A stretch of DNA of 58,208 nucleotides, taken from contig JANNSK010000093.1 of assembly GCA_031402515.1 (NCBI GenBank), positions 1 to 58,208 of the forward strand, in the 5' to 3' direction. Under the pieces are notes generated by a model that worked only from the letters and a program-made list of their open reading frames with translations, had not been told where the DNA came from and ran no database searches. The translations under genes were made by a program, and so were the position numbers. Source of the stretch: Alphaproteobacteria bacterium (GTDB taxonomy: Bacteria > Pseudomonadota > Alphaproteobacteria > Rickettsiales > UBA3002). Shown in pieces: positions 1 to 30,656 of this stretch; position 1 is the stretch's first letter, and each line of letters starts with the position of its first letter.

Positions 1-986
<986 letters not shown>

Positions 987-1391: not shown

Positions 1392-2987
1392 CTACCGATG
1401 TGGCGGGCGGATGGGTGGGCGGATGGTGCCCTTGGGACGGCTCGCAGGCGTGGTTTTGCCGCCGGAAGATTCCGCTCCATCACCCGCAGGTTTAGTAGTT
1501 TCGGGCGTGGTGTGCGCCACTCTCGATCCCTGCAGCTGCCCGGAAACTTCTTGCTTTCTGGCTTCTTCAAGCGCCCGCGCCATATCCTCTCTCGACAGGT
1601 CGGGCGTGGTGGTGAGGGCCTCAAGTTTTTTTGCCAACGGATCGAATTCCTTTGGTAAGGTGGTGAGTGCGGGCTTCACTTCCGCGGGTTTACTGATAGG
1701 CCGCATCGGAACACCGATGGCGCGCAGCAGTGAAGGCTTCACCTCCACCTCCACCTTGCCGGCAAGTGATGGCAGCAGGCTGCCGGTAAAACTGGCGATG
1801 TCTGTGATTTGTTGTTTACGACCACCCGACCCCATAAGGAAGCCAGCCTCGGCTTTGCGCAGCATACGAATTGAATTGATCGCCTCCGGGAACTGATTAT
1901 GGAAGCGCATGAAATCAATGTTCGATTTTTCAATTTCCGCGACGCTATCGATGAGATTCATGACTGGATTAAAGTTATGATCGCCGCCCTGACGCTCACG
2001 AATTTCCCATAGCTCATGCGGCGTATGGCGCTTAAGCAAGTCGATCTCCGCTGTCATCTCGCGAAGCTGGTCTTCCATATCTTTATCATCAGTGATGAAG
2101 GAGCCTAAATCCAGCGGGCCTCCGCCCTCCTCAAGTTCCGCTTCAAATGCTTGATTAAAGCTATGCAGCAGCGGCGAATCATGTTCCTGCACGACTAGTT
2201 TCACTTCCTGACCCAACCTGCGATCAAGCTCCTCGAACGAGACAATATGATCGTGCTTGGCAACCGCATTACTCAGCATTTGCATCGTGGCAAAAACAAG
2301 CCGTTTGCTGTTGTCGCCGATATCATTCCCGAACAGCTGCCGAATCGATGACCTTTCCGGGCGGCCTTTATCCATATCATCAAGAAGGCCTTCGTAGTTT
2401 GTGCGCATGGTTTCCACCGCATCGACTTCTTTTTTAAGTTCGCGATATCGTTTGGCATCGCCTTGCCGTTCTTTGAGTTCCAGCTCTTTGGCAACCATGT
2501 CATGTTCGAGTGCGCGATATTCCTCTCTCAACGCATCTATTTGTTTTTTTAGCGTCGCGTATTTCGGCGCTAGTTCTTTATTGTTGGGGTGGCCGGAAAC
2601 TTTGCTCCAGTGGCTTAAAAGATGGTCAACATCCATCGGCGTCATTTTTTTGCGGTCGTAACCGGCATTGAGAATCATCTGAGGCTGCAAGCCGCTTATC
2701 TTGCCATGCAACGGATCGATTTGTTTATCGATGAGCTTTAGCCGTGCCTTGGCCGCGCGTATCTCAGCGGCCAGTTTCGGTGCCTCTGTGCCAATATCTC
2801 GCGTGGATTCCTTCATACGAGTGAGCAAAAGCACGCGCTCGATATCGTCGAATGGCCGCAGCGGCGTTAGTTTGCCGTGCTCATCGAAAGCCAGCAACGT
2901 GCTCTCGCCTTTCATCACGCGTGCGGCCTCCTCCCGTATAAATTCGGGATAACCGTCCATGGGTAATGTCGCCGCAAAGCTAGGCAT
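1392..2987 (-). CDS. orphan coiled-coil protein, 531 aa, Pro/Arg-rich C-tail (candidate effector)
   Basis: Long ORF with E/K/L-rich helical segments, no signal peptide, ends SRPKGTIRPPIRPPHR; box 34 nt upstream. Confidence 0.8.
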   Translation of the reverse strand: MPSFAATLPMDGYPEFIREEAARVMKGESTLLAFDEHGKLTPLRPFDDIERVLLLTRMKESTRDIGTEAPKLAAEIRAAKARLKLIDKQIDPLHGKISGLQPQMILNAGYDRKKMTPMDVDHLLSHWSKVSGHPNNKELAPKYATLKKQIDALREEYRALEHDMVAKELELKERQGDAKRYRELKKEVDAVETMRTNYEGLLDDMDKGRPERSSIRQLFGNDIGDNSKRLVFATMQMLSNAVAKHDHIVSFEELDRRLGQEVKLVVQEHDSPLLHSFNQAFEAELEEGGGPLDLGSFITDDKDMEDQLREMTAEIDLLKRHTPHELWEIRERQGGDHNFNPVMNLIDSVAEIEKSNIDFMRFHNQFPEAINSIRMLRKAEAGFLMGSGGRKQQITDIASFTGSLLPSLAGKVEVEVKPSLLRAIGVPMRPISKPAEVKPALTTLPKEFDPLAKKLEALTTTPDLSREDMARALEEARKQEVSGQLQGSRVAHTTPETTKPAGDGAESSGGKTTPASRPKGTIRPPIRPPHR

Positions 2988-3021
2988 ACGGCCCTTCTAA
3001 CAGCCATTTGGGCCGAGAAGT

Positions 3022-3039
3022 ATGACAATTTGATGAAGA
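3022..3039 (-). promoter_or_regulatory. PhoB/OmpR-type direct-repeat box TCTTCAT-CAAA-TTGTCAT
   Basis: 11-bp periodic half-sites, 34 nt before ATG 2987; 3018-3042 is identical to 4330-4354. Confidence 0.75.
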
Positions 3040-3073
3040 TTTTTGGTTAAACAATCGCCAAGCGGTGCTTCGT

Positions 3074-4300
3074 CTACCGATGCGGTGGGAGTTTTGGGGT
3101 AGGACGGTGGGTGCCGCGGGGGCGCGGGGGCTTGGTTTTTGGCACGGCCTCCTCGCCCTTGCCTTCTGGATGCTGCGTCACACCCCCTTCTTTTGCTGCT
3201 GCAGCAGCATCGATGGCAAGAGAATTCACATCGATATCTCGTCCAAGAACGGAGTTCTTTGTATCCCAGTTTCTGAAAACTCCATGATTCTGTGTCTGCT
3301 TGCCCTGCATGTCTTCCAGAACAGGCGTGGATCCCGGCTGTATGCGCAGCACTCGCTCCATTGATTGATGATTCTGATACAATACGAAAGAGTCGTTGGA
3401 ATCCGGTGATTTAAGGCCGACGGAAGTCGCGCCGATAGCACGAGCATAGCCCATGAACTGATCCATATAGCTACGTAAATTACCAGGTTTTGTAAACGAG
3501 ACGAAGCGGGCCACTTCAGGGAATGCAGCGATCATGTCCTCTGCGGTGGCGCCATTCAACGCCAACCGCCCTTCAGCATCCAGTAATTGTTTGAACCCTG
3601 AATCAGTGACAATAGCAATGCCATCGCGCTGGATGGTATTCACTTGCTTACGAATAGCAAACGGATCCCATTGTCCTTCCCCCATTTCCATGAAAACACG
3701 ATGGCCTTTGGGAGAGGGCGGCGGCCCCTTGATTACATCGTTATACGCCATCAATAGATTGCGCGGGAGATCGGATTGCTCGCGCCAGACAGGACCATCC
3801 GGCTTTGCTTTCAAACGCTGCGGCGCTACCGGGCTCATCGCGCCACTAAAGACAACATGAACCTTGGTTTTGTCGATACCGGTATTGGACAGCCCATTTT
3901 CCAGATAACGGGCGTTTTGTGCCATCGTATCCGTACCGTGGACGAAAATCACCCGTGCATATCCCTCCCGCTGAACTTTATCTTCAATCGCCGCCACACT
4001 GTTATTGAGATGATTGGGCGTAACACCCTTGCTGTCTTCCATAGCGATACCAAGGAATTCGACCTTATCACCCAAGCCAAGCTTTTTAAAAAGAGCCGGT
4101 ATGGCTGAGGCTTTTATGATGCGGTCAGACTGGGTAATGGGGCTGACCGCTTCCGGCGGATACAGACGCGGATCGACGATCGTGCCGTCCTTTAGCTGCC
4201 TCGGCAGTGGCACAATGTGAGGGGTGTCTTCGTGTTCCGGCGAATACAGGGAATCGCCTGTGCCACCGGTAATCACAACAAGTATTTTATTTTTCGACAT
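3074..4300 (-). CDS. asparaginase/glutaminase-like N-terminal domain fused to an unknown region and Pro/Arg tail, 408 aa
   Basis: KILVVITGGT, VHGTDTM and VVFSGAM motifs; ends PRPRGTHRPTPKLPPHR. Confidence 0.8.
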   Translation of the reverse strand: MSKNKILVVITGGTGDSLYSPEHEDTPHIVPLPRQLKDGTIVDPRLYPPEAVSPITQSDRIIKASAIPALFKKLGLGDKVEFLGIAMEDSKGVTPNHLNNSVAAIEDKVQREGYARVIFVHGTDTMAQNARYLENGLSNTGIDKTKVHVVFSGAMSPVAPQRLKAKPDGPVWREQSDLPRNLLMAYNDVIKGPPPSPKGHRVFMEMGEGQWDPFAIRKQVNTIQRDGIAIVTDSGFKQLLDAEGRLALNGATAEDMIAAFPEVARFVSFTKPGNLRSYMDQFMGYARAIGATSVGLKSPDSNDSFVLYQNHQSMERVLRIQPGSTPVLEDMQGKQTQNHGVFRNWDTKNSVLGRDIDVNSLAIDAAAAAKEGGVTQHPEGKGEEAVPKTKPPRPRGTHRPTPKLPPHR

Positions 4301-4333
4301 TCTCTTAGCTTAACGCACTGGATTATTAAAAGT

Positions 4334-4351
4334 ATGACAATTTGATGAAGA
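4334..4351 (-). promoter_or_regulatory. PhoB/OmpR-type box TCTTCAT-CAAA-TTGTCAT
   Basis: 33 nt before ATG 4300. Confidence 0.75.
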
Positions 4352-4385
4352 TTTCGCGGGCTCATGATTGAAAACCCACCATTTT

Positions 4386-6035
4386 TTAACGCACTTTGGG
4401 AGGTTTCAGCGGCGGGCGGCCGACCCCGTGCGGGCGGGTGCCGCGTGGGGTGTGGGATTCAATCGGCCCAGCGCCATGCTCAGGGAACGAACGCGGGCGT
4501 ATTTGGTTCCACTCGGCAAGATCCGGCATCGTCGCAATGGTCTCTTTCAGGGTCTCAAAAATTTTTGCTTCATCTGGTGGGCTGCCAAACCGGCGCTCAA
4601 TGGCCTGATTCATGAATACATCCAGCTTCGCTATCGAGGCCGATTCATAGCCCCGCATCAATTCTTCCGTCAATTTCAGATAGCCCTGGTCGCGCAGGCT
4701 TTGGAACGATGGCCAGTCTCGCGTTGCTGCCTGCCGTTTCATGGCAATCGACGATAATTCATTCGCATCCTGCCAGCGATTGCCTTTCATCAACGCATCC
4801 AGACGTTCTGGGATATTCCTGTACAGCAAAGTTTGCTTTGCCGCGTTTACTTCTTTGGAATCCCGCACAGCGCCTGCGGCTTGATAGGCAACTCCCGCAT
4901 CCTGTAATTTCTTGGCGGCATCCATTTGCGCGGCACCCTCCGCTGCCGCACTCAATGTTTCCGACGATAGGCCGGGAGTGCGGATCAAATCGTTCAGCGT
5001 GTCGAGGGATTTGCCGAAATGGCCCATCCGTCCTTTGGCCAGCCAGATACCATGGGTGACACTAAAATCCGGCATGGCGATGATATTTTCGCGAATGATT
5101 CCGAACAACGCATGGCTTGGCGTGGTTTCTGTTTGGCCTTCGTACTCCCACCCCCGCATCATGAGCGGTCTATGTTCAGCAAGGCGTTTGGCGACGAAAT
5201 CAGCGATACGCGTATCGGCGAAATGAGCCCGGGCGTCTTTGTCATCCGGCACCGATTCGTAGCCTTGCATCAAATCATGGATAAGCTGGAAATAGGCGTC
5301 CCGCCGCAGATTTTGAAAATCCGGATAGTGCTTGGCGCCGGAATTGCTATAGGCAACGTGCGAAAGCTCATTCCGTTCATCGAAATCCATCAGGCGGATG
5401 AGTTTATCTTCAAACATACGCCGCCATGCATCAACGCGGATGCTGTCGTTGAACCTGACCTGTGTTCGCGCCTCGGTCCGCACCGCATCCACCCGGTACT
5501 CCGCCGGATTCACAAACGGCTCTTTTGGTAGTGCGGATACGGTTTTTCTTACCGGCGCATCATCATCCGGATGGCTATGCGGAATGGCTGAGGGCCATGC
5601 ACGCCAACTGGCATCATGGGCCATCCATTGTGCCTTGCTCATCCGCCCGCCGCCGCTTTGCAACCCATCATGGACGTTTTTCTGCCAAAGCCGCGCACGC
5701 CCAACGTAAGCCTGCCATTCACTATTCAACTCCAGATAAGCAAGATATTTGGTGAATTTTGTATAATTGGGCCCGAAATCAGGGAAAATCCTTCCCGCTT
5801 CCATATCCTCGATCCATCCTCTGGTGATACCATCCAAGGGCGGGTTGGTTGGCGCATCCAAGGCTACCCGAATGGATTTCATCAATGCCCCGAAACGTCC
5901 GTCGAGTGGTTGATCCGCAATGATACCGTGGTTTGTCTGCCAGCGCGTTTTCGCCGCTGCATCGACATCCGGCAAAGGCGCCCTGCTTCTGCTTGCAGCA
6001 CTGCGATTGTTGATTGGTTTTGATTCTTCGCTCAT
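4386..6035 (-). CDS. orphan protein, 549 aa, with internal duplication and Pro/Arg tail
   Basis: NELS..PxFQxLR..YxxLxxxLMxGYES..IxxMPD occurs twice; ends TRPHGVGRPPLKPPKVR. Confidence 0.8.
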   Translation of the reverse strand: MSEESKPINNRSAASRSRAPLPDVDAAAKTRWQTNHGIIADQPLDGRFGALMKSIRVALDAPTNPPLDGITRGWIEDMEAGRIFPDFGPNYTKFTKYLAYLELNSEWQAYVGRARLWQKNVHDGLQSGGGRMSKAQWMAHDASWRAWPSAIPHSHPDDDAPVRKTVSALPKEPFVNPAEYRVDAVRTEARTQVRFNDSIRVDAWRRMFEDKLIRLMDFDERNELSHVAYSNSGAKHYPDFQNLRRDAYFQLIHDLMQGYESVPDDKDARAHFADTRIADFVAKRLAEHRPLMMRGWEYEGQTETTPSHALFGIIRENIIAMPDFSVTHGIWLAKGRMGHFGKSLDTLNDLIRTPGLSSETLSAAAEGAAQMDAAKKLQDAGVAYQAAGAVRDSKEVNAAKQTLLYRNIPERLDALMKGNRWQDANELSSIAMKRQAATRDWPSFQSLRDQGYLKLTEELMRGYESASIAKLDVFMNQAIERRFGSPPDEAKIFETLKETIATMPDLAEWNQIRPRSFPEHGAGPIESHTPRGTRPHGVGRPPLKPPKVR

Positions 6036-6069
6036 ATCCTATTCTTACTCGCCCCTTACACCGCTGTGT

Positions 6070-6087
6070 GTGACAATTTCATGACAA
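6070..6087 (-). promoter_or_regulatory. PhoB/OmpR-type box TTGTCAT-GAAA-TTGTCAC
   Basis: 34 nt before ATG 6035; possible third in-phase half-site at 6092. Confidence 0.75.
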
Positions 6088-6092
6088 ATGAG

Positions 6093-7556
6093 TTAACGGT
6101 GGGCACCGCCACGTATGGCGGTTGGGCGGCCGCGATGGCCATGCGGCCGTTCCGGGAGAGGCGGCTTTTGCTTTTCGGTAGTTTCAGGCAAAGTAGCGCC
6201 ATGCGGGACAACCGTTGCCGGAGCAATGGCTGTCTGGCCATTTCCCAAAGACTCGACCGGATATTTTTGTAAAGAGTCCAAAGTTGGGGTCAGAGAAAGA
6301 TCGCGTTTGGGCCATGGCGGAAGTAGCGATTCTGCCATTGCTGCTTTCGCATGCCAGCTATTGGGAGGAAGTTTATCGAATACCGCACGTTCAAAATAGC
6401 TTACTTTTGATGCTCCCTGTTTTATCTCTACGCGGTCGGCAATGCGAGAAAACAAGGCTTCTTCATTTTTGCTCAATGTCCGGTTATCCGGGGGCAGACT
6501 GCTTTCCCTGCTACCCGTATGCGCTACACCCGAAACCTGCAAAGTACCCAAAAAGTTTGCGATACTTATACCATCCCAGTATTCCCGTATGGCGTGGATG
6601 TATTTCATGCGTGTATCGATTGTTTCTACCAGATCCGCCCATAACCGATCCTCTGGGTTTGGCATCCAACGCTCGCCGCGTGCTTCCGTGTGTAGTTTAT
6701 CCAGCATCGCCTTCGCATAGCGTTTGGAAAACATGGCATGACGTGGGCGGACCAATGAACCAGTCTCCTCCCCCGTACGCCGGTAATGAATCATCAGATT
6801 TTCGTAATGCTCGAATTGTTTAGAATCACCGACAAAAATATGCTGCTTAATTTCATGCATTAATTCTATGGCTGGCAGCATATCACCGCTAAATATATGA
6901 CCATTTTTGTAAACGGAACCGGGTGATTTCTTGTAACGAAGTAATGCATAGGTGGTCAGAAATTCAGCGGGGTCCAGTGTTGCGTCACGCCATACCGTGA
7001 GCCTTTTGCGCCCATCTTCTGTTTGTATAAGTCTCCCGTAATCCAGCCCTTCTTGATTTTTCCGCGGAATGACTGTGCTAAGTTTTGTCTGACGATCGCG
7101 ATTTAACTCCAGGCGGCTCAAGCGTGCCTCCAATCCACCATGCGCCTTCAGTAAGGCCTCGCTCCGCACAGCATTGGCTTCCGGTTGATTCGTCCATTCA
7201 CCGGCCGTGTTGTGGAGACCTTCCATCGTCACCCGTTCGCGCGCAAGATCGCGCTCTGTACCACTTTTTGCCTGATCCATGATCGGCCAACTGAAGAGTC
7301 TCATGATCTGTTGATGCTGAAGCTTATCCGGCAATGTCTGACTGGCCGCATCAAACCATGCGGCGGTAGTCTCACGCGAAACACCCAGTTTCTCCGACAA
7401 GACGATGGACGAATGCGGCAATTTGATGGTCCCCGGCTTTTCTTTTGCCGCAATCGCGGCGAGTGGTTTGCTGATGGCATCGATCCAACGCTGTTTGGCG
7501 ATTTCGCGTGGACTTCGTACCACTTTTTTGGTGTTTGCTTCAGGCATAATTGTCAC
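6093..7556 (-). CDS. orphan protein, ~485 aa, possible N-terminal HTH, Pro/Arg/His tail
   Basis: LSEKLGVSRETTAAWF resembles an XRE-type HTH; AAGGAG RBS; 17 nt after the upstream stop (operon); start may be ATG 7547; ends ERPHGHRGRPTAIRGGAHR. Confidence 0.75.
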   Translation of the reverse strand: MTIMPEANTKKVVRSPREIAKQRWIDAISKPLAAIAAKEKPGTIKLPHSSIVLSEKLGVSRETTAAWFDAASQTLPDKLQHQQIMRLFSWPIMDQAKSGTERDLARERVTMEGLHNTAGEWTNQPEANAVRSEALLKAHGGLEARLSRLELNRDRQTKLSTVIPRKNQEGLDYGRLIQTEDGRKRLTVWRDATLDPAEFLTTYALLRYKKSPGSVYKNGHIFSGDMLPAIELMHEIKQHIFVGDSKQFEHYENLMIHYRRTGEETGSLVRPRHAMFSKRYAKAMLDKLHTEARGERWMPNPEDRLWADLVETIDTRMKYIHAIREYWDGISIANFLGTLQVSGVAHTGSRESSLPPDNRTLSKNEEALFSRIADRVEIKQGASKVSYFERAVFDKLPPNSWHAKAAMAESLLPPWPKRDLSLTPTLDSLQKYPVESLGNGQTAIAPATVVPHGATLPETTEKQKPPLPERPHGHRGRPTAIRGGAHR

Positions 7557-7573
7557 GCTCCTTCATCATGTTT

Positions 7574-8923
7574 TTAAGGTCTCAGCACTGGCCGCTGCAT
7601 ACGGCTGGTCGCCGGCCGCCCTTGTGGCGATGTGTGTGTTTGCGGTTTAGCCTCCACGCCATGCGGCTGGGGCGTCGGCAATGGAGTATGGGGTGCAGTT
7701 GATTCCATGGATTCAGAAGATGGCAAGGTAGAAAGAAAACTTGAACCACCGATGGCATCAAGTGCACGATGTTTTTCGAGTGCACGATGCAAGGTTTCAG
7801 TGCGCGCATAATCGTTCAAATCTTTCTGCGCTTTATCGAGCAGTGATTTGTAGTATTCGTAGCTTGGGGTTTTGCGCAACTCCAGTGACTGCATAAAAAG
7901 TATTTTCATGGATTCATTAAGTCTGAGCACTCCAGATTCAATTCCCGCAATGCTTCTCAAGTCGATAGGTTTACCACCCGACATGTCGCTCATTTTTTGT
8001 GCTAATTCACCTTGGGTGTGGATACCCTTAATGCGCCGCAATCCATTAAAAACATAAGCCAATCGTGTATTCGGCGTCTGTTTCTCAAGCCATGCAGGAT
8101 TCAATAACGTGGTGGCGAGCACGTTTTTTTGGTAGGCATCGCCCAGAATAAGGTTTTGTCGAGTCTCTGCTGCGGATGAGTCAAGGCCGGACTTTGGCTT
8201 TGCAGTGCTAGAAAACCCTGCGTTTTCTAAAGATCGCGGCTCTGCATCCGGATACGCGTAATACGCTTTTCGTAGCCATGGTCCATGCGCTTCATAAACT
8301 CCACCACGCTCCGCATTCAGCGCGCTTTCAAGTTCGTTAAACGGTAAACTTGTCGGCTTAATTCTAGATTGAGACTTCTCAATACCAAACACGTATGATC
8401 TGGAACGCCCGTCGTCACCAAGTAATTGACCGACCTCTTTCGCACTCATTCCCTGTGCTTTACGGAGACGCTCAAAATAGCGGCCGAACCATTCTTTTTG
8501 CGGATATTGACTGATTTCAGCCCATAACTTTTCGGGCGGCGGTAGCGGTGGCCGTGTATATTTCCCCGGATTTATTTCCCCATAATGTTCATAAGCCGTC
8601 TGAAATTGTGCTTTATATTGATTAAACGGGCTCTGATCTAAATTAAGCCCACGTACCCAAAGTTTAAATTCATAATTCGTGGGGTTATTGCCGGGCCTGA
8701 ACTTCTCGATCTGACTAACAAATGCCCCCGTTACCCCGAGTACTCTAGCAATATCGGTCTGCGGTAACGGCATGCCCACACGCGTGGAAGGCTGTAATTC
8801 CCGGATTCGTTTTAGCAGATACCCGAATTCTTTCCGCTTATCGCCTTGCGTAAAAGCAGCGACTTCTTTCGCCAGTTCTTCTGGCGCTGGCAGCGGTTTT
8901 GGTGGTGTATATTTTTCAGCCAT
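7574..8923 (-). CDS. triple XRE/Cro-type HTH repeat protein with Pro/Arg tail, 449 aa
   Basis: Three HTH-like units: QTDIARVLGVTGAFVSQIEK; MSAKEVGQLLG..SYVFGIEK; TQGELAQKM..SIAGIESG. Confidence 0.8.
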   Translation of the reverse strand: MAEKYTPPKPLPAPEELAKEVAAFTQGDKRKEFGYLLKRIRELQPSTRVGMPLPQTDIARVLGVTGAFVSQIEKFRPGNNPTNYEFKLWVRGLNLDQSPFNQYKAQFQTAYEHYGEINPGKYTRPPLPPPEKLWAEISQYPQKEWFGRYFERLRKAQGMSAKEVGQLLGDDGRSRSYVFGIEKSQSRIKPTSLPFNELESALNAERGGVYEAHGPWLRKAYYAYPDAEPRSLENAGFSSTAKPKSGLDSSAAETRQNLILGDAYQKNVLATTLLNPAWLEKQTPNTRLAYVFNGLRRIKGIHTQGELAQKMSDMSGGKPIDLRSIAGIESGVLRLNESMKILFMQSLELRKTPSYEYYKSLLDKAQKDLNDYARTETLHRALEKHRALDAIGGSSFLSTLPSSESMESTAPHTPLPTPQPHGVEAKPQTHTSPQGRPATSRMQRPVLRP

Positions 8924-8957
8924 CCCACCTGCATAGCTGAATCTGAAGGCGAGTTGT

Positions 8958-8975
8958 GTGACAGTTTTATGACAA
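8958..8975 (-). promoter_or_regulatory. PhoB/OmpR-type box TTGTCAT-AAAA-CTGTCAC
   Basis: Near-perfect match to the Pho-box consensus CTGTCAT-AWAW-CTGTCAY; 34 nt before ATG 8923. Confidence 0.8.
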
Positions 8976-9015
8976 TTAATATAGGAATTCGCGCATTATT
9001 GCGGCGCAAAATTTA

Positions 9016-9876
9016 CTACTGCGTGCTCTCCGCGGCGAAACTATTCAGGAAAAACAGGCCGCAGGAGGGGCTGGTATAATCCTTGTCATACTTGGCGGTG
9101 GAGGGAACGTTGGTGGTCGAGCAGTTCGCTTGCGCGGTGTTGTTCCAGCCGCGCATATCGCCTAATCCTGGCAACCCATCATCCGCTTTATTATCAAGGC
9201 TATAGGCTTGTTTACCGCTGATAGCCGCCGCAGTCGGGTAGCTGTTGGTCGTGGTGGTGCCGTAAACCAGTACATTGTCGTAATCGCCGTCGAAGCGCGA
9301 AGCGTCAGCACTCAATGTCCCAAAACTATCGAGGAAGAACGTCGTGTTCTTGACCGCGGTGAGCGGGCTGTTGGTGCCGGGTATGGCATAGCGGATGTTA
9401 CCGGTCGCATAGATACCGGTGAATTTCCCTATGACCATTTCGGCAGCGGCAAGCTGTTGCCATGCACGGAAACTCTCAAAGCTCGCCGCTTCGATAAGCC
9501 CGTCGCCATCGCCATTGCAGGTGGTTTTGCCGTCGCTGGCATCCGTCGCAGGAGCGGCGCAGTTCGTGGTGAGGTCGGCATTTCCGTCCGCTTTGCCCCA
9601 GACCCGCACGGCAGTCGAAAAATCGCCAGGCAGTTCACCGTATTTGCTTTTGAACAAGGTCAAAGCGTGGCGATAGCTTGTCGCGTCCGTCAGGATGCCA
9701 CGCACGCGTTGTTCCACAAGCAGGCTTTGGCCCATTAGCACCCCACCCGTCAAAAGGCCGATGATGGTGATGACGACGGCCATCTCGATAAAAGTAAAGC
9801 CTTGAGCCGACAGCCGACAGCCTTTAGCTTTTTTCTTTTTTAGCTGATGGCTGCTAGCTGTTGGCTGCCCACTCAT
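9016..9876 (-). CDS. type IV pilin/pseudopilin-like protein
   Basis: G|FTFIEMAVVITIIGLL prepilin cleavage/methylation motif after a basic leader; Cys pairs. Confidence 0.9.
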   Translation of the reverse strand: MSGQPTASSHQLKKKKAKGCRLSAQGFTFIEMAVVITIIGLLTGGVLMGQSLLVEQRVRGILTDATSYRHALTLFKSKYGELPGDFSTAVRVWGKADGNADLTTNCAAPATDASDGKTTCNGDGDGLIEAASFESFRAWQQLAAAEMVIGKFTGIYATGNIRYAIPGTNSPLTAVKNTTFFLDSFGTLSADASRFDGDYDNVLVYGTTTTNSYPTAAAISGKQAYSLDNKADDGLPGLGDMRGWNNTAQANCSTTNVPSTAKYDKDYTSPSCGLFFLNSFAAESTQ

Positions 9877-10415
9877 ATCGGTAACCCCAACAACTCATAG
9901 AGCTCGCGCTTGGTGTTGACGACTTGGTAAAACTGCCGGGTTTCCGGCCGGGCAAAGCCGACGGAAATCATTTGCTCCAGCAGCTCCACCAAGAGATCCC
10001 AGTAGCCATTATGATTGTAGATGACGACCTTCTTTTGGTGAATCTTGATTTGTCGCCAGGTGATGACTTCGAACATTTCGTCCAGCGTGCCGAAGCCACC
10101 GGGAAGGATGACGAACGTATCCGCGTTGTCGTACATGATTTGTTTGCGCTCGTGCATCGAGTCCACAAAATGCATTTTGGTGAGGCCTTTATGCTCGACC
10201 TCGATACGCCCCAGCGAGCGCGGGAATACGCCGATGACTTTGCCGCCTGCGGCGAGCGCGCCATTGGCCGTTTCACCCATGAGCCCGCAATCGCCGCCGC
10301 CATAGACAAGCTGGCGGCCAGCTTTCGCCAGGTCGTGCCCAAATTCGTGCGCCATGGTAAGATGTTCCGCTGGCACTTTTTGCTGGGCACCACAAAACAC
10401 ACAAATTGAACGCAT
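9873..10415 (-). CDS. LOG-family nucleotide phosphoribohydrolase (TIGR00730-like)
   Basis: ICVFCG, LVYGGG..GLMG, MHERK, PGGFGTLDE. Confidence 0.92.
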   Translation of the reverse strand: MRSICVFCGAQQKVPAEHLTMAHEFGHDLAKAGRQLVYGGGDCGLMGETANGALAAGGKVIGVFPRSLGRIEVEHKGLTKMHFVDSMHERKQIMYDNADTFVILPGGFGTLDEMFEVITWRQIKIHQKKVVIYNHNGYWDLLVELLEQMISVGFARPETRQFYQVVNTKRELYELLGLPI

Positions 10416-10499
10416 ATTCGATAAAGAATCACTCATAGAAGCGCGTGACCATAAGGATTCTGTAGAGCTTTGCAAGCGGCGCTGCGAAAAAAAACGCCG

Positions 10500-11030
10500 C
10501 TAGCGCTTCGATTCCGCCGAGAGCGTGGCTTCTTTCAGGGGTTCACCGCGAATCCGCCCCTCGGCGAGCACGGTCGTTGTGGGTGTATTGCGCCCCTCGA
10601 AAGCAATCTGCTGACGTAGTTGTTCGTTTTCGTGTGCGAGATAGCTGTTGGCAGATTCGTATTGCTTTAATCGTAGCACGCTTTTATCGACTGCGTTGAT
10701 GTCGTATTGCTTTTTTGTTTGCTCTTGCCAAAGATTAAAGGCCATCCAGAAGGTGCCGATTTTAAGGCCCCAGCCTTCGCCGTTGAGCAGCACCATTTGT
10801 CCAGTTTTCTCGGAGGCTTCAAGAAGCTTATCGCCCGCTTTTCTCAATCCAAAAAGTCCGTATGGCCGGGCGAACCAGCTGCCCTTCCACTGCCGCGCCA
10901 GCACGAAGCCACCGACAGTCGCCGCAATCGGCAGGATAATCTGCGAGGCGGTGGCCTTGAGATATTGGCCGACCGTCAGCGTGCCGCTTTCACGATCACG
11001 GTAAGCGCGGGTTTTTAGTATCTCGGACAT
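10500..11030 (-). CDS. orphan membrane/coiled-coil protein, 176 aa, paralog of the upstream gene
   Basis: Hydrophobic helix plus coiled coil; aligns by eye with 11035-11577. Confidence 0.75.
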   Translation of the reverse strand: MSEILKTRAYRDRESGTLTVGQYLKATASQIILPIAATVGGFVLARQWKGSWFARPYGLFGLRKAGDKLLEASEKTGQMVLLNGEGWGLKIGTFWMAFNLWQEQTKKQYDINAVDKSVLRLKQYESANSYLAHENEQLRQQIAFEGRNTPTTTVLAEGRIRGEPLKEATLSAESKR

Positions 11031-11034
11031 GGGG

Positions 11035-11577
11035 TTAATGAATAATACGATTTTCAGGAGTTTCGGAAGCGGCTATTTTTTCCCGCCACGATCCTGCGGG
11101 TTTGCTGCGTATTTTTGGCGCGACTTCTTTTTCCTTCAGCATCGCCCACAGGCGCTGGTTTTCTCGTTTGAGTTCGGGATCGGTTTTTTTGAACAGTTCG
11201 ATATCGGAAATATCTTTGGTAATTTCATCCACCTGCAACTGTGCTTGCTTTTCTTTTTTCCAATGGCCGTAGCCGAGGGTAAGTCCGCCGATGAGGCCGC
11301 CGAATGCCGCGCCGCCAATCGCCACCCACATGGCTTGCAAACTCGGTGCTTGTTTGAGCCCGGGCCATGTCGATAGACGGCCAATTAAATCCTTCCAGCC
11401 TTTTTCAGCCATCATTGGATTGTCGGGGAACCATTTATTTCCCAACGCAAGTCCGCCCCATACACCGGCGACCTGACTGCCAACGATAACGGCCATCTCA
11501 TACAGCTTCTTCACCATGTAGCTGCCGAAGCCCAGCTTAGCGTCGTAATCGCGATTCGTGTCCTGCCCTGATGGCAT
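11035..11577 (-). CDS. orphan Gly-zipper membrane/coiled-coil protein, 180 aa
   Basis: Two Gly-rich hydrophobic helices then a coiled coil; AAGGAG RBS. Confidence 0.78.
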   Translation of the reverse strand: MPSGQDTNRDYDAKLGFGSYMVKKLYEMAVIVGSQVAGVWGGLALGNKWFPDNPMMAEKGWKDLIGRLSTWPGLKQAPSLQAMWVAIGGAAFGGLIGGLTLGYGHWKKEKQAQLQVDEITKDISDIELFKKTDPELKRENQRLWAMLKEKEVAPKIRSKPAGSWREKIAASETPENRIIH

Positions 11578-11623
11578 AGAGACTCCTTCATGTTTAGAAT
11601 AGCTTATTTACCCGGTGAGTAGT

Positions 11624-11641
11624 GTGAACCTTTTGTGAAGA
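11624..11641 (-). promoter_or_regulatory. degenerate box TCTTCAC-AAAA-GGTTCAC
   Basis: Same 11-bp periodicity; 46 nt before ATG 11577. Confidence 0.6.
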
Positions 11642-11687
11642 TGGAACTGGTAATCCGCTGAATTCTATGTATTTATCGATAAAGTCT

Positions 11688-12368
11688 ATGAGCGACGAAC
11701 AACATTATCTCGGCCACCGGTCCCGCCTGCGCAGCCGATTTATCGAAGGCGGCAGCGCCGCCCTGCCGGATTATGAGCTGCTCGAACTTATTCTTTTTTC
11801 CGCCAAACCGCGCGGTGACGTCAAGCCGCTGGCCAAACGCCTGCTCAAGGAATTTGGTTCCTTCGACAAGGTGATCTACGCCGACGATAACGCCTTGCGC
11901 GCCGTCGATGCGGTGGGGGATGCGGTGGTTGCTGCCATTAAGACCATCCGCGCCGCGACGGAGCGATTGATCAGGCTGGAGGTGGAGGAGCGCCCGGTCA
12001 TCCAGTCATGGTCGGCACTGATGGATTATTGTCGGTTGATCATGGGCAAAAACAAGGTCGAGGAGCTGCGCGTTCTGTTCCTCAATAATCGCCACATGCT
12101 GATTGCCGACGAGCTCATGCAGAAAGGTACGGTAAACCATTCGCCGATTTATCCGCGTGAAATCGTTAAACGCGCGTTGGAGCTGGCGGCATCGGCAATC
12201 ATCCTGGTGCATAACCATCCGAGCGGCGACGCCACGCCATCGAAAGCCGATATCGACATCACTAAGAAAATCGTCGAGGCGGCAGCAACTATTGGCGTTG
12301 CCGTGCACGACCATGTCATCATCACCGAAGCCGGGCATTATTCGTTCAAGAGTTTTGGGCTGTTGTAA
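11688..12368 (+). CDS. radC: RadC/JAB-domain protein
   Basis: GHRSRLR, DYELLE, HNHPSGD, DHVII. Confidence 0.95.
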   Translation: MSDEQHYLGHRSRLRSRFIEGGSAALPDYELLELILFSAKPRGDVKPLAKRLLKEFGSFDKVIYADDNALRAVDAVGDAVVAAIKTIRAATERLIRLEVEERPVIQSWSALMDYCRLIMGKNKVEELRVLFLNNRHMLIADELMQKGTVNHSPIYPREIVKRALELAASAIILVHNHPSGDATPSKADIDITKKIVEAAATIGVAVHDHVIITEAGHYSFKSFGLL

Positions 12369-12375
12369 GAATCAA

Positions 12376-12446
12376 GTGCTAGTCGCTAGTGCTAGTGCTA
12401 AATATTAACCAAATTTTCTTAGCACTAGTGACTAGCACTAGCACTT
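12376..12446. repeat. inverted array of GCTAGT(C) units between convergent genes
   Basis: tgctagtcgctagtgctagtgcta ... tagcactagtgactagcactagca; could act as a bidirectional terminator. Confidence 0.75.
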
Positions 12447-13227
12447 ACTGCGCGGTCCAGCCACCATCGGCCGAAATATGGGTGCCGGTGATGTTGCTCG
12501 CCGCCTCCGAGCATAAAAACACTGCAATGCCGCCGATGTCGGATGCTTGGGTAAAACGTTGCGAGGGCTCTTTCTCCTTGAGCAGATCTTTCTTGGCCTG
12601 CTCCTTAGAGATATTTTCCTTCGTCGCACGGTCGTCGATCTGCTTCTCCACCAGTGGCGTATGGACCCAGCCGGGACAGATAGCATTGACGGTAATATTT
12701 TGCGATGCGACTTCAAGCGCGACGACTTTGGTAAGACCGACAAGCCCGTGCTTGGCTGCCACATAGGCTGATTTGTTGGGCGAAGCGACAAGCCCGTGCG
12801 CCGAGGCGACGTTGATGATGCGCCCGTAATTGCGTTTTTTCATCCCCGGCAGTGCGGCCTTGATAGCATGGAACGACGAACTTAAATTGATGGCGAGGAT
12901 GGCGTCCCACTTCTCTTCGGGGAATGCGTCGATGGGCGACGTGAACTGAATACCGGCGTTATTGACGAGAATATCGACCGCGCCGAAGTCTTTTTCCGCC
13001 TGTGCCACCATGGCTTTGATTTCAGCGGGCTTGCTCATATCGGCGGATGAATAGGCCGCCTTGATGGCGTATTGCTTGGCCATGCCCCCGACCAGTTTGT
13101 CGATTTCAGCCTTATCGCCAAAGCCATTAAAGAGTATGTTTACCCCCTGCCCCCCCAGCGCCTCGGCAATCGCCAGCCCAATGCCGGACGTTGAGCCGGT
13201 AACAATCGCGGTTTTGTTTTTGAGCAT
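12445..13227 (-). CDS. bdhA: 3-hydroxybutyrate dehydrogenase (SDR)
   Basis: TGSTSGIG, NNAGIQF, ASAHGLVAS..KSAYVAAKHG, ICPGWVHTPLV. Confidence 0.92.
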   Translation of the reverse strand: MLKNKTAIVTGSTSGIGLAIAEALGGQGVNILFNGFGDKAEIDKLVGGMAKQYAIKAAYSSADMSKPAEIKAMVAQAEKDFGAVDILVNNAGIQFTSPIDAFPEEKWDAILAINLSSSFHAIKAALPGMKKRNYGRIINVASAHGLVASPNKSAYVAAKHGLVGLTKVVALEVASQNITVNAICPGWVHTPLVEKQIDDRATKENISKEQAKKDLLKEKEPSQRFTQASDIGGIAVFLCSEAASNITGTHISADGGWTAQ

Positions 13228-13252
13228 AGCATCTCCTTTTCACATTCTCGGT

Positions 13253-13369
13253 CGTCACCCCCGCGTAGACGGGGGTCCAGCTTTACGCCGCGTCTGCGGC
13301 GAAAAGACCGCTGTCTTATCACGCCGGACGGCGCTTAACGTTGGATTCCCCGCCTGCGCGGGAATGACG
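13253..13369. repeat. REP/RPE-like bipartite palindrome
   Basis: CGTCACCCCCGCGTAGACGGGGGTCCA ... TGGATTCCCCGCCTGCGCGGGAATGACG. Confidence 0.75.
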
Positions 13370-13470
13370 GAACAAGAGGGAGTGGATAGCATCACATAAA
13401 GTATTTTAAAAGCATCGAATCGATTTTGAATTGCATTTCGCTGCACCATCTCCATGATGACGCGATGATC

Positions 13471-14799
13471 ATGTCCGATGAAAAACTGCTAGCTTCTTTC
13501 CACCGTGCTTTGCGCCATGTGGCGAAAACACTCGACATCCCCCTCACCGTCACACTGTGGGATGATTCAGAAATAGCGCTAGGCACGACGTCCGAAGGCG
13601 CACTATCCATTCGCAGCGCTGGCACTATCGCCTCGCTTCTAAAACGCCCGACATTCGAAAATCTCATCGGCCATTACGCCACGGGGAATATGGCCATTGA
13701 TGGCGATTTAATGACGCTCGGCCAAACCATGCGCGCCCGCGTCAAAAAGAAAGATTTTCGCCGCCTGAATAAAATGCTGCTGCTGCGTTCTTTGTGGCCA
13801 TTTTTGTTTGTACGCAGCGAGAAAGTCGTGGTCCGCCACGAGGACGAAGCCGGTGTGATGCATCGCAACGAACGCAATCAGGATTACATCCGCTTTCATT
13901 ACGATGTCGGTAATGATTTTTATCGCCTCTTCCTCGATCCCGAAATGCAGTATTCCTGCGGTTATTTTACCGATGCGGCGAATTCGTTAGAGCAAGCGCA
14001 GCAGGACAAGCTCGACATGATTTGCAAAAAACTACGCTTGCAAAAAGGCGAGCACATGCTCGATATCGGCTGCGGCTGGGGCGGCTTGATATGCCATGCG
14101 GCGAAGCATTACGGCGTCATCGCCCACGGCATCACCCTCTCCAACGAGCAATATGCATACACGAAAGAGAAAATCCGCGCGTTGGGATTGGAAAACCAGG
14201 TCACTGTCGAAATCCGTGATTACCTGACGCTCGATGGGCAGTACGATAAAATCTCCAGCATCGGCATGTTCGAGCATGTGGGCATCGCCAATTTCCCCAC
14301 CTATTTTCGCAAAGTGAATTCGCTGCTACGCGAGCGCGGTATTTTGCTCAACCACGCCATCGCGCGGCGGGCCAAGGCGAATGATCGTGACAGCGCCAAA
14401 AAAATTACGGCGGAGAAACGCCTGCTCCTCAAATATATTTTCCCCGGCTCCGAGCTTGCCCCCATCGGCCATACGGTAAGCAGCATGGAAACCTGTGGGT
14501 TCGAATTGCACGATGTCGAGGCCTGGCGCGAGCATTACGCACTGACCTGCAAACATTGGTGCGAGCGCCTCATCGCCAACAAGGACCGCGCCATTGCGTT
14601 GGTTGGTGTCGAGAAATACAATCTATGGGCGGCGTATCTGGCTGGCGTCTCGTTCGGATTCACTTCCGGCTCAATCCTCATATTTCAAGCCGTCGCCACC
14701 AAACGCGCCAAGCAGAAAGGCTTGTCCGGCATGAAGCTGACCCGGCAGGATTTGTATGAAGAAGCTGCGACATTAGAGAAATTGGTGGCTCGGGGGTGA
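13471..14799 (+). CDS. cfa: cyclopropane fatty-acyl phospholipid synthase family methyltransferase
   Basis: HYDVGNDFY, MQYSCGYF, LDIGCGWGG, SIGMFEHVG, YIFPG; start approximate. Confidence 0.9.
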   Translation: MSDEKLLASFHRALRHVAKTLDIPLTVTLWDDSEIALGTTSEGALSIRSAGTIASLLKRPTFENLIGHYATGNMAIDGDLMTLGQTMRARVKKKDFRRLNKMLLLRSLWPFLFVRSEKVVVRHEDEAGVMHRNERNQDYIRFHYDVGNDFYRLFLDPEMQYSCGYFTDAANSLEQAQQDKLDMICKKLRLQKGEHMLDIGCGWGGLICHAAKHYGVIAHGITLSNEQYAYTKEKIRALGLENQVTVEIRDYLTLDGQYDKISSIGMFEHVGIANFPTYFRKVNSLLRERGILLNHAIARRAKANDRDSAKKITAEKRLLLKYIFPGSELAPIGHTVSSMETCGFELHDVEAWREHYALTCKHWCERLIANKDRAIALVGVEKYNLWAAYLAGVSFGFTSGSILIFQAVATKRAKQKGLSGMKLTRQDLYEEAATLEKLVARG

Positions 14800-21191: not shown

Positions 21192-21202
21192 GGCCTTAGC
21201 AA

Positions 21203-21220
21203 TTGTCATCAAATCTTCAC
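21203..21220 (+). promoter_or_regulatory. PhoB/OmpR-type box TTGTCAT-CAAA-TCTTCAC
   Basis: On the + strand, matching the orientation of the downstream + strand orphan (61 nt). Confidence 0.72.
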
Positions 21221-21281
21221 ATTCAACAGCCTAAATATATGTTAAATTGGGCCTCTTAGACTTGTAGATAGGAGACTCCCA

Positions 21282-21548
21282 ATGCCGGAAGCAGAGAACA
21301 AATTCAGTGATGAAGAAATCAAAAAAGCATGCGAGGCGTATGGCCAAGCCAGTTGGACGGCTGATATCAAACTTGGGCCACCAGGCCCCACTATTGAAGA
21401 CAATCAAAAGATCTACACTCAGAAATGTGTCTGGGCTAATCAGCGCCTAGATTCCGTAGACAAGAATTTAAGAATTCCCAATCTTATTACGGATGGGGTC
21501 ATCAGAAAAACCAAAGATGGCAATTACGAGCCAGTGCCTCGCCGCTAA
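21282..21548 (+). CDS. small orphan protein, 88 aa
   Basis: AGGAG RBS, upstream box, AT-rich. Confidence 0.65.
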   Translation: MPEAENKFSDEEIKKACEAYGQASWTADIKLGPPGPTIEDNQKIYTQKCVWANQRLDSVDKNLRIPNLITDGVIRKTKDGNYEPVPRR

Positions 21549-23446: not shown

Positions 23447-25543
23447 TTAATGAATCGTTGAATTGCCGGGAAGCTGGACATCCGCGTGTTTGCGATCGCC
23501 GACGCTATCGGCCCAGCCCTGATTCTGCGCCGTTTCTTCTGGTGTGGTATGACGCACATGCATCGGCGGCGGGCCGTTATATTGCACCGTGGTCGCCTGC
23601 ACTTTGGTGCTCGGTGTCATATCGATTTTTGGGTTGAGGACGATAGTGGTTTTGGGCGTGCCGGGCGCAGCGGCAGGTTTTTTCGGTTTGTCGTCATCCT
23701 CGTCCTTGACGATTTTGCGGCCCTCGAAATACTTCGCCGGTTTGCTTTGAAGGTCAATGGCAAGTCCGCCGATTTCTTTCACGGATTTGCCGGCTTTGCC
23801 TAACTGCCATGAAGAAAGATTGTCGATGAGCCCGTAGATGGCCTTGTCCATTCTACCGTTCTCACCGGTTGATGGGCTGTCGTTCACCCGCAGACCGAAT
23901 TCATCCTTGGCGATGAAGTAAGGCGTATAAGACATCGCGGCATCGACATAGGTGCGCAGGAAATCTTCGCGACGCCACAGTTCTGGTGTGCCGCCGGGGC
24001 CAGCCATAATTTTCGACAGGCGGCTGCCAACGGGCAGCACCGCATCGATGGCATGGTTAAGTCCAGAGCCCAAAGTGAAGCACATCCAACCGAAGGGGCT
24101 CAATAGCTTGGAGGTGAGTGATGGAGAGTTCTCCCAGGAGAATAACCCCTTCTCCTTTAATGATTTGGGAAACGGCACTTTTTGGTCGCTGAAATGGATA
24201 AAGTCCGGACGCGCCCCATTATGCAGCCCACCGGTAGGCCGCAGCCCACGATTTGTTTTCGAGACACTGCCATACGCCTGACTGCCCGCCGTGCCCCCCT
24301 GCAATAAACCTTTGGGATGCGAGTCCCATGTGCCGACAGAACTTTGTCCTGGCTGCGCATTCTCCAGAATAAACTCCGAACGCCACTTGCTTTGCGGTGT
24401 GCGGGTGATCCAGAAGAACGGTACCGATGGCTGCATGAACAGGTTGGCCTTGATCGTGCTTTTGATGAGGTAACGGCCGATGGTGCTTAACCCATCGATC
24501 ACGCTGGCGATCGGGTTGCTTGGGATGTGGAAATCAAACGATACGCCGTGTTTGTAGGCATGATAGAGCCTGCGGCCGATGCCATCGTAAATCTCGCGAT
24601 ACATCAGCGTGAAGACGTTGTAGCCGACGAACCTGCCCTGCAGGTCGAGAAGTCCAACGAGCTGATGGTCGCCGACGATATCGCCCTTATCGTTGACGAT
24701 GTAGGAGCCGCCGTTCCTGTTGCGATCCGAGCTATAAGCGAACGTCGGAACGAATTTTGACAGCATGTTGCGCTGCCACCTTAATTGATAGACATAAGGC
24801 AGCGCCGCAGCCCAGTCTTCACCAGCGTTTTTGGTGACGACGCGCCAGCTGGCACGACCCACCGCATGCGCCCATTTGCCGAAATCAAAATGGCCCTTAT
24901 CGCGCGTGGTTGCATTACCATTTTTATCAATCCACCATGGTTGCGGCAGGTTGGGATCGAAGGCCTGAATCATGTTGCGTACCGCGCCGTCGCCCAGCGA
25001 CATCGCCGCGAAGTCATACGTCACCGCAACCACTTCTGCACCGAGGCTGCGCCCCATCTGCATGCCTGCAACATTATGATAATAATTCGTTGGGCGGAAT
25101 CGCGTGACCGTTTTCGCCCATTCGGGATTCATCCATTTGGCAACAGTTTCGATCGGCTTTCCGGCAACATGGTCGAAGACATTCGCAACATATTGCAGTG
25201 GCTTACTGCCTTTGCCGATGAATTTTTCTTTGCCCCAGATGAAGGTCGATGGGTCGTAACCGAATAGCTGATTGCTGGCGTAGCGCGTCGCGAAGGCAAA
25301 CGATAGCGCACCGAAGATGCCGCGCGAAATGGTGCGAATCGCCATCCGCCCCTGTGTGCTCGACGCCCAGTTTGGTTTGGCGTTATAGTCGGATAACACA
25401 TTGCGCCCGTAGAGATATTCCTCCTGCGCGCTCGGACCATCGACGCCGAAATACGGCTCGGCCTCATCCGCAGGTGCAGTCGTCTCATCCAGCGGCGGAA
25501 CGTCGCTTGGCGATTTCTTTTTCTCTGTGTCGTCGTCTGACAT
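23447..25543 (-). CDS. large orphan protein, 698 aa
   Basis: Long ORF; acidic N-terminus, aromatic/Gly-rich core, P/T-rich tail. Confidence 0.8.
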   Translation of the reverse strand: MSDDDTEKKKSPSDVPPLDETTAPADEAEPYFGVDGPSAQEEYLYGRNVLSDYNAKPNWASSTQGRMAIRTISRGIFGALSFAFATRYASNQLFGYDPSTFIWGKEKFIGKGSKPLQYVANVFDHVAGKPIETVAKWMNPEWAKTVTRFRPTNYYHNVAGMQMGRSLGAEVVAVTYDFAAMSLGDGAVRNMIQAFDPNLPQPWWIDKNGNATTRDKGHFDFGKWAHAVGRASWRVVTKNAGEDWAAALPYVYQLRWQRNMLSKFVPTFAYSSDRNRNGGSYIVNDKGDIVGDHQLVGLLDLQGRFVGYNVFTLMYREIYDGIGRRLYHAYKHGVSFDFHIPSNPIASVIDGLSTIGRYLIKSTIKANLFMQPSVPFFWITRTPQSKWRSEFILENAQPGQSSVGTWDSHPKGLLQGGTAGSQAYGSVSKTNRGLRPTGGLHNGARPDFIHFSDQKVPFPKSLKEKGLFSWENSPSLTSKLLSPFGWMCFTLGSGLNHAIDAVLPVGSRLSKIMAGPGGTPELWRREDFLRTYVDAAMSYTPYFIAKDEFGLRVNDSPSTGENGRMDKAIYGLIDNLSSWQLGKAGKSVKEIGGLAIDLQSKPAKYFEGRKIVKDEDDDKPKKPAAAPGTPKTTIVLNPKIDMTPSTKVQATTVQYNGPPPMHVRHTTPEETAQNQGWADSVGDRKHADVQLPGNSTIH

Positions 25544-25596: not shown

Positions 25597-25698
25597 GTGA
25601 AGGTTTTGTGACAATAAGGAGAGTTTTGTGACGGTTTGATGACCAACTAAACCTCTGAACAGCCGAAATATTTCAGTTGTGTGAAGTTTGCATGACAG
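25597..25698 (-). promoter_or_regulatory. three boxes in the divergent intergenic region
   Basis: 25597-25614 TTGTCAC-AAAA-CCTTCAC; 25628-25645 TGGTCAT-CAAA-CCGTCAC; 25681-25698 CTGTCAT-GCAA-ACTTCAC. Confidence 0.72.
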
Positions 25699-30484: not shown

Positions 30485-30555
30485 GTTGATTCCTTAATAA
30501 TATGAAGGTTGGTTCCTAATGGAACCCGCTTTAGCAGACTCTTTTATTAATGTGT

Positions 30556-30573
30556 ATGAAGATTTTATGACAA
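30556..30573 (-). promoter_or_regulatory. PhoB/OmpR-type box TTGTCAT-AAAA-TCTTCAT
   Basis: 71 nt before ATG 30484. Confidence 0.72.
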
Positions 30574-30656
30574 TTGAGGGGAGATATAGGGTTTAGAGAA
30601 TTAAGACCGCAGGCCACTATACCCTACCCCCCTAAATCCTATACCCTTAATTTCAC

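Follow-up and report, generated by a model that had tools for sequence, protein, structure and literature searches.

Why should five proteins with unrelated bodies, encoded side by side, all end in a similar basic tail? The question is raised by contig C93, whose 58,208 bases make up the whole of our window. It belongs to the genome assembly of an uncultured freshwater relative of Rickettsiales (1.97 Mb in 121 contigs, 98.9% complete, 55.6% G+C). Between positions 1392 and 8923 the window carries five open reading frames (ORFs), here called A, B, C, D and E, arranged head to tail on the minus strand. A first-pass annotation of this DNA had taken them for an effector island bearing a new translocation signal of a type IV secretion system (T4SS). 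We find that the five proteins belong to a class of 19 in this genome, that the genes of this class are closely tied to one promoter element, and that the genome encodes a complete T4SS. Our tentative preference is that the tail may mark some of the candidate effectors for secretion or targeting, in this lineage only.

The observations that raise the question hold up. The five annotated C-termini match the ORF translations exactly. As had been claimed, the bodies are unrelated: in BLASTP searches against all ORFs of the genome no pair fell below E = 7, and the likeness lies in the tails only. N-terminal hydrophobic segments and membrane-like segments are missing from all five, in agreement with the annotated lack of signal peptides. 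The array also lies directly upstream of the ribosomal RNA (rRNA) operon, as annotated, because the same strand carries, at 985–1, a bacterial 16S rRNA gene of which the contig end leaves only the 5′ part (window 1–985, minus strand; Rfam RF00177, 980.7 bits, model positions 1–1030). Contigs from two further samples of the source study reproduce the array and all five tails with zero or one difference, and the array is thus no assembly artefact. The two samples thus carry the same sequence as the window, and hence no population variation is seen at the array. A sequencing run from a second study, of a wetland, contains two short pieces that are 97–99% identical to window positions 4004–4365 and 5168–5518, neither of which covers a tail. 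Thus, a close relative exists beyond the source study.

Are the tails peculiar to this array? When all C-termini of the genome were ranked by their content of proline and basic residues, a class of 19 proteins on ten contigs emerged. It comprises the five proteins of the array and 14 on nine other contigs, namely four encoded in tandem on C79, three on C98, and single members on C11, C15, C51, C90, C104, C113 and C114. The tails are 12–18 residues of Arg/Lys/His-Pro repeats in which acidic residues are absent. Under a strict rule for proteins of at least 200 residues (at least four Pro and at least five Arg, Lys or His among the last 16 residues, with no Asp or Glu), 13 of 1210 C-termini qualify, against 0.19 expected from internal windows and none among the N-termini, an enrichment of about 70-fold. 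A second rule, not tuned on single members, requires that the last 12 residues be free of Asp and Glu and that the last 20 contain at least two [RKH]P dipeptides; it selects 27 of 1532 proteins against 3.6 expected. Sixteen of these 27 belong to the tail class, and the other 11 are mostly Lys/Ala-rich or short ORFs. The RPxG..RP motif of the first-pass annotation, taken strictly, matches no real proteins of the genome but these five, while the looser class has 19. “Effector island” also proved too narrow a term, since the five genes form one of three tandem arrays that stand beside seven single genes.

The bodies that carry the tail are diverse. An asparaginase-like domain (B), a NUDIX domain (the C51 protein), an NTPase_I-T domain (the C114 protein) and helix-turn-helix domains (E and two C79 proteins) were recognized, and most of the others have no Pfam family. 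None of the 19 has an N-terminal hydrophobic or membrane-like segment, Sec signals having been judged by a hydropathy proxy rather than by SignalP. Global hydropathy lies below −200 in 17 of the 19, compared with 101 of 1448 proteins that are not encoded behind the promoter element described next.

That element was found by a repeat search of the array, which revealed 25–26 nucleotides (nt) recurring upstream of A, B, C and E. When scored by identity to a reference copy, this box precedes 16 of the 19 tail genes, and it often ends 27–29 nt before the start codon. A position weight matrix (PWM) built from the coordinates of the boxes finds about 115 sites of at least 20 bits in the genome, with 91 downstream genes. 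Tails occur in 17 of these 91 box genes and in 2 of 1843 box-less genes (odds ratio 211, p = 9e-22), a comparison that somewhat favors tail genes because the matrix was trained on them. Tails are thus enriched among box-controlled genes, the link on which the first-pass annotation had staked its proposal.

The box is a direct repeat of two TCA-containing half-sites with an 11-nt period (TCA-N8-TCA). This layout fits what would be expected for a regulator of the OmpR family, and it fits Pho boxes too. The CenR site, given as TGA-N8-TGA in the published description (PMC9275681), has the box as its reverse complement. The likeness to CenR and PhoB sites lies in the half-sites and the period; a difference is that the only pstS gene of this genome (window 56706–57536, minus strand) has no box listed at 20 bits or more, which weighs against a plain Pho box. 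The genome encodes six OmpR-family regulators, among which PhoB and CtrA were recognized and three others were scanned without assignment.

The regulon marked by the box consists largely of orphans. Among 40 tail-less box proteins scanned, 36 had no Pfam family, and the four exceptions showed ankyrin repeats, a PcfJ-like domain, a BTLCP protease-like domain and an EF-hand. An N-terminal hydrophobic segment is present in none of the 91 box proteins, compared with 344 of 1694 others. The C-termini of box proteins hold fewer hydrophobic residues and more Pro, Ser, Thr, Gln and Asn, and their last residue is basic in 43% of cases against 21%. No recurring neighbor gene, such as a chaperone or immunity gene, was seen beside the tail genes; the lack of an immunity-like partner argues against classic antibacterial toxins.

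What lies ahead of the tail suggests that it is one part of a larger module. A helix-like motif of six residues stands 54–71 residues from the end in 11 of the 19 tail proteins and in 53 of 1513 others, a contrast whose p-value is inflated because the pattern was picked after the data had been viewed. Protein D is a distant relative of the family encoded by the four tandem tail genes on C79 (positions 6270–14070; BLASTP E 6e-8), where the box of the next gene starts 7–8 nt after the preceding stop codon. Among the C79 paralogs the last ~80 residues are 57–82% identical and the bodies 15–34%. That the C-termini are so much better kept than the bodies suggests either gene conversion or strong constraint. 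Together with the helix motif, this conservation indicates a bipartite module, in which the motif is followed by a linker of Pro, Thr, Glu, Gly and His, presumably disordered, and then by the basic tail.

A profile was built from the C-terminal 70 residues of 20 proteins, one of them an M48 peptidase on C3 that was later dropped as a doubtful member. It finds all of its training set again, but it mostly fails when one locus at a time is left out. Absences based on this profile are therefore weak. Run against 1.84 billion representative proteins, it gave a single match, the genome's own C98 protein, which says little about novelty because the other training members also missed the threshold.

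The likeness between loci is one of protein rather than of DNA. When sensitive BLASTN was applied to the final 90 nt of each coding region together with the 80 nt that follow, the tail-coding DNA was dissimilar between loci except among the C79 paralogs. Between loci, only downstream boxes were matched, bar one match of 13 nt (E 0.006). The pattern is thus kept at the protein level. An in-frame mobile repeat of the Rickettsia palindromic element type and a DNA cassette of tail plus box were both considered as its source and rejected, as no tail DNA matched between loci. No box follows the seven single tail genes, except on C104, where a full-score box (C104 2564–2589, minus strand) lies 168 nt downstream with no ORF of at least 80 residues behind it. 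That box could be an orphan promoter or serve a small gene or an RNA.

Within the array itself, all features lie on the minus strand. Gene A (1392–2987) encodes a coiled-coil-like orphan of 531 residues, for which Pfam coiled-coil matches remain below threshold; its basic Pro/Arg tail is formed by the last 15 residues (1395–1439), and its box (3016–3041, 42.4 bits by PWM) lies 28 nt before the start codon. Gene B (3074–4300, 408 residues) combines an asparaginase-like N-terminal domain (PF00710, E 1.3e-9) with a tail of 16 residues (3077–3124), and its box (4328–4353, 39.5 bits) lies 27 nt before the start. Gene C (4386–6035) encodes an orphan of 549 residues without a Pfam family, in which the helix motif stands 58 residues before the end and is followed by a tail of 16 residues (4389–4436). 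The box of C (6064–6089, 25.8 bits) is more divergent and occupies the gap between two genes, 4 nt past the D stop codon and 28 nt ahead of the C start. Gene D (6093–7556), the member of the C79 family, encodes 487 residues without a Pfam family and ends in a tail of 18 (6096–6149). Gene E (7574–8923, 449 residues) carries an Xre-type helix-turn-helix (PF13560, E 2e-7; PF01381, E 5e-6) and a tail of 18 residues (7577–7630), with a box (8952–8977, 38.6 bits) 28 nt before its start. Gene D has no box of its own; 17 nt separate its start from the stop codon of E, and the two genes are probably co-transcribed, in which case the box of E would serve D too. Scans of the array for sigma-70 promoters and terminators gave no signal above shuffles.

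Some of these proteins were examined further. Protein B keeps both asparaginase signatures, Thr-Gly-Gly-Thr near residue 12 and His-Gly-Thr-Asp-Thr near residue 122, and so it may be an active amidohydrolase that carries the tail. It had no match at E ≤ 0.01 among Protein Data Bank sequences, and an AlphaFold2 model made with no alignment was unusable (mean predicted local distance difference test score, pLDDT, of 39). Protein C, compared with a protein atlas, reached a best score of 0.81 and no convincing look-alike. A word-based search of 5.8 billion proteins with B, D and the C79 module matched only proteins of the genome itself.

The window also holds four boxes in front of tail-less genes. 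These lie at 11618–11643 on the minus strand (gene 11035–11577, 180 residues), 21201–21226 on the plus strand (gene 21282–21548, 88 residues), 25622–25647 on the minus strand (gene 23447–25543, 698 residues) and 30550–30575 on the minus strand (gene 29735–30484, 249 residues). The neighbor immediately upstream of the array (9016–9876, minus strand) is a gene for a protein of 286 residues with a prepilin-type N-terminal methylation motif (PF07963).

Is there a machine that could export these proteins? The first-pass annotation made its proposal depend on a secretion system in the genome, and one is present. A complete rvh-like P-type T4SS is encoded, with VirB2, VirB3, two VirB4, three VirB6-like proteins, VirB8, VirB9, VirB10, VirB11 and VirD4. 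Its genes fall into three islets: one of VirB8-B9-B10-B11-VirD4, one of VirB3-VirB4 with two VirB6-like genes, and one of VirB2 with the second VirB4 and a VirB6-like gene. This agrees with the rvh layout of Rickettsiales as described in PMC9352585 and PMC11077975, where VirB4 is duplicated, VirB6 occurs in several copies and the islets are scattered. VirD4 of this genome (C106 1816–3672, minus strand) and that of related genomes end in a Lys-rich stretch, a proline run and a variable tail, which is unusual for a coupling protein. A gene for a HicB-family antitoxin (C106 1149–1511, minus strand) adjoins virD4.

Machine and regulon are shared more widely than the tail appears to be. Within the order, each of the 41 genomes searched has VirD4, and it is 78–93% identical in the relatives fetched, the nearest of which are uncultured metagenome-assembled genomes labeled Rickettsiales or Alphaproteobacteria. 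The box is present in all 24 genomes of the family, with 7–102 matches each, and hardly occurs in other families of the order. The genes behind it change: the regulon turns over between species of one genus, and protein A has weak homologs in 2 of 23 same-genus genomes. On present sequence comparisons, the tail appears confined to this lineage, although VirD4 and the box regulon are conserved beyond it. Some box-driven proteins of two relatives, G014 and G001 (L193, L196, L215), have ends rich in His or in His, Arg and Glu rather than in Pro and Arg. Other lineages may have tail classes of their own.

We propose the following scheme. Nineteen hydrophilic, lineage-specific proteins lacking Sec signals share one kind of C-terminal module, made of the helix motif (often ~55–70 residues from the end), the linker and the basic tail. 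An OmpR-family response regulator would bind the direct-repeat box and switch on the tail genes together with about 70 other orphan genes. The proteins would most likely be exported as effectors through the rvh-type T4SS, and the basic tail may be what the coupling protein VirD4, or an adaptor found only in this lineage, recognizes in them. More generally, the regulon data fit a set of fast-evolving exported proteins, a fifth of which would have gained a common basic C-terminal module in this lineage.

Charge speaks for this scheme. The rules of charge and hydrophilicity described for type IV effectors of alphaproteobacteria (PMC3814349) can be applied in the form of S4TE: over the last 25 residues all 19 tails hold three or more His, Arg or Lys and reach a net charge of +2 or higher, and their mean C-terminal hydropathy is −1.43. 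The resemblance to the positively charged C-termini of T4SS substrates, proposed from the array alone, extends to the whole class. In Rickettsia, RalF and RARP-2 reportedly bind RvhD4 through their C-terminal tails (PMC11077975). It is because all 19 tails satisfy the charge rules and because those two tails reportedly bind RvhD4 that we rate a T4SS tag highest among the explanations.

Several observations weigh against the tag. Only 17 of the 91 box genes carry the tail, and 74 do not. Among tail-less box proteins of at least 140 residues, a net charge of +2 occurs in 17 of 65, the same share as in non-box proteins (425 of 1448). In the 23 same-genus genomes the tail profile matched nothing, though this profile is insensitive, as the leave-one-locus-out trials indicate. 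The tail rule, applied in relatives to box-downstream genes only, was satisfied by none of 46 box-driven proteins (distinct complete ORFs of at least 140 residues behind strong boxes: 17 from G014, 13 from G001 and 16 from others), compared with 12 of 40 here and 10 of the top 20. Where relatives have homologs of tail proteins, these end without the tail, as seen for A (G009, G016), for the family of D and C79 (G024, G019, G011) and for the C114 protein (G030). The C-terminus of VirD4 here shows no visible difference from that of relatives. Finally, the secretion genes carry a single weak box-like match, a palindromic one (C94 9204–9253) that scores 17.7 bits with our PWM and 9.8 bits with model R1. 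It precedes the gene for the VirB2 pilin by ~55 nt, and nothing else hints at the box touching secretion genes. Since most box proteins and the sister species are tail-less, a role of the tail as this machine's general signal is excluded. The first-pass claim of a new translocation signal is thus partly supported, by the T4SS, the link to the box and the charge rules, and it is weakened by the mostly tail-less box genes, the lack of the tail in the relatives searched and the T4SS genes without a clear box.

A different division of labor is one that we regard as possible at rather low probability. The proteins would be exported, but by a signal elsewhere that is common to tail-less box proteins. 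The tail, polycationic and of polyproline type, would do its work at the target cell, inside it or on its surface, by tethering the protein to an anionic partner. Candidate partners are acidic membrane lipids, nucleic acid, tubulin-like acidic tails and a proline-recognition domain. The low-hydrophobicity, Pro/Ser/Thr-rich and often basic-ending C-termini shared by the tail-less box majority could be the general signal, and a lineage-specific tail on a conserved T4SS is what adaptation to a particular target would be expected to produce. Three tail proteins have DNA-binding helix-turn-helix domains, and ankyrin repeats in one member of the regulon are a hint of targets in eukaryotes. The tails do not, however, have any one known docking motif in common. 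An SH3 ligand was rejected as the shared motif (class I, [RK]xxPxxP, in 6 of 19; class II, PxxPx[RK], in 9 of 19), as was an AT-hook, whose Gly-Arg-Pro core is found by eye in 6 of 19 and whose full Arg-Gly-Arg-Pro core is found in D. The strictly terminal position of the tail, with none among 1210 N-termini and few internally, fits a recognition tag better than a docking element.

Perhaps the proteins are not secreted at all. The box would then define a stress or envelope regulon of cytoplasmic proteins, and the tail would have an internal role in binding nucleoid, ribosome or polyphosphate, in marking proteins for proteolysis, or in slowing termination through its Pro-rich end. A missing signal peptide is equally expected of cytoplasmic proteins, the box fits CenR and Pho sites, whose regulators are not necessarily concerned with virulence, and no clear box stands on the secretion genes. 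Several bodies, moreover, are nucleotide-handling enzymes or helix-turn-helix proteins. We nevertheless consider a cytoplasmic role unlikely, as it leaves unexplained a regulon made almost wholly of orphans that turns over between species of a genus, its ankyrin-repeat member, and the tail-less homologs in sister species.

A tail without function is quite improbable. Disordered C-termini in a genome of 56% G+C could drift in composition, for example where a lost stop codon lets translation run on into G+C-rich spacers, and spread by duplication. The codons of Pro, Arg and Gly are G+C-rich. The likeness is indeed one of short motif and composition rather than of a domain, as the few recoveries with one locus left out imply, and part of the set, the C79 foursome, reflects recent paralogy or gene conversion. 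Drift does not account for a ~70-fold enrichment at C-termini only, for the near-exclusive tie to one promoter element, or for the missing acidic residues. Nor does it explain why independent DNA on ten contigs encodes the tail, why the helix motif keeps a fixed distance, or why congeners of the same base composition lack the tail.

Type I signals are C-terminal and uncleaved, and the substrates are typically acidic with Gly-rich repeats. That the tail is a C-terminal signal for a different one-step pathway, for instance type I export dependent on TolC, is very improbable: the genome has one TolC-family gene, no type VI sheath gene was found in it, and its sole FHIPEP gene, a single copy split over two contigs, looks flagellar (FlhA), but the tails are strongly basic and Pro-rich, unlike typical type I substrates, and no neighbor family recurs at the arrays, no search having been aimed at an ABC/HlyD pair.

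If a secretion tag is nonetheless the right reading, how would it relate to known systems? Three comparisons are informative. First, the Agrobacterium VirB/D4 substrates VirF, VirE2 and VirE3 have an Arg-rich C-terminal transport signal (Vergunst et al. 2005, as cited in PMC4653730). The likeness is that of an uncleaved, hydrophilic, Arg-rich extreme C-terminus on functionally unrelated proteins, in a genome with a VirB/D4-type system. The tails described here differ in their [RKH]P repeats, in lacking acidic residues, and in having a helix motif and linker ahead of them, and they occur in a single lineage, on one in five of the candidate cargo proteins. RalF and RARP-2 of Rickettsia are comparable in that an rvh-like system and a C-terminal tail read by VirD4 are involved, a likeness drawn from their description in PMC11077975; no tail protein was found to be homologous to a known rickettsial effector, no search having been aimed at those effectors.

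Second, the Beps may offer a structural parallel. In Bartonella, these effectors combine BID, a helical domain of ~100 residues, with a positively charged tail. There, as here, a structured element precedes a basic C-terminal tail and the N-terminal bodies vary. The module of the present proteins differs in having only a six-residue helix motif, in 11 of 19.

Third, the regulon has a counterpart in those of PmrA, which commands an effector regulon in Coxiella too. For Legionella, PMC3814349 describes PmrA and CpxR as regulators of numerous type IV effectors. The shared feature is an OmpR-family direct-repeat site before many unrelated, fast-evolving effector genes, which are candidates in our case; the box is distinct from that of PmrA, as is the kind of secretion machine, P-type here and Dot/Icm there.

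Positively charged C-terminal signals (Agrobacterium, Bartonella, Rickettsia) and effector regulons marked by a regulator (Legionella PmrA) are thus already established. What is new, literature searches not having been aimed at the motif, is a discrete [RKH]P-repeat tail with helix motif and linker, the tie of this tail to the box regulon of an environmental Rickettsiales relative, and the recent, lineage-limited spread of the tail. A more specific version of the tag reading would be that a new cargo tag has been caught arising: the bipartite module would have been grafted onto about a fifth of an older candidate-effector regulon, in one lineage, and would be read by a lineage-specific adaptor of the rvh T4SS. 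We hold this version to be rather improbable. Proline-rich antimicrobial peptides act on the ribosome in trans. In a bolder variant, the Pro/Arg end would pause termination in cis on the ribosome, and the chain would be handed to the secretion machine.

Finally, these proteins bear on a gap in the biology of the group. Schön et al. 2022 (PMC9352585) state that no verified effector could be assigned to the rvh system of deep-branching environmental Rickettsiales, and they proposed bacterial killing or defense against protists as its role. The promoter box and the C-terminal tail now yield a concrete list of ~90 cargo candidates, 19 of them with a discrete tag, and these 19 tail proteins are the best candidates so far for cargo of the group's T4SS. 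If the secretion-tag reading is true, a lineage-limited tail on a conserved machine and regulon would offer a rare view of how such a signal originates and spreads.

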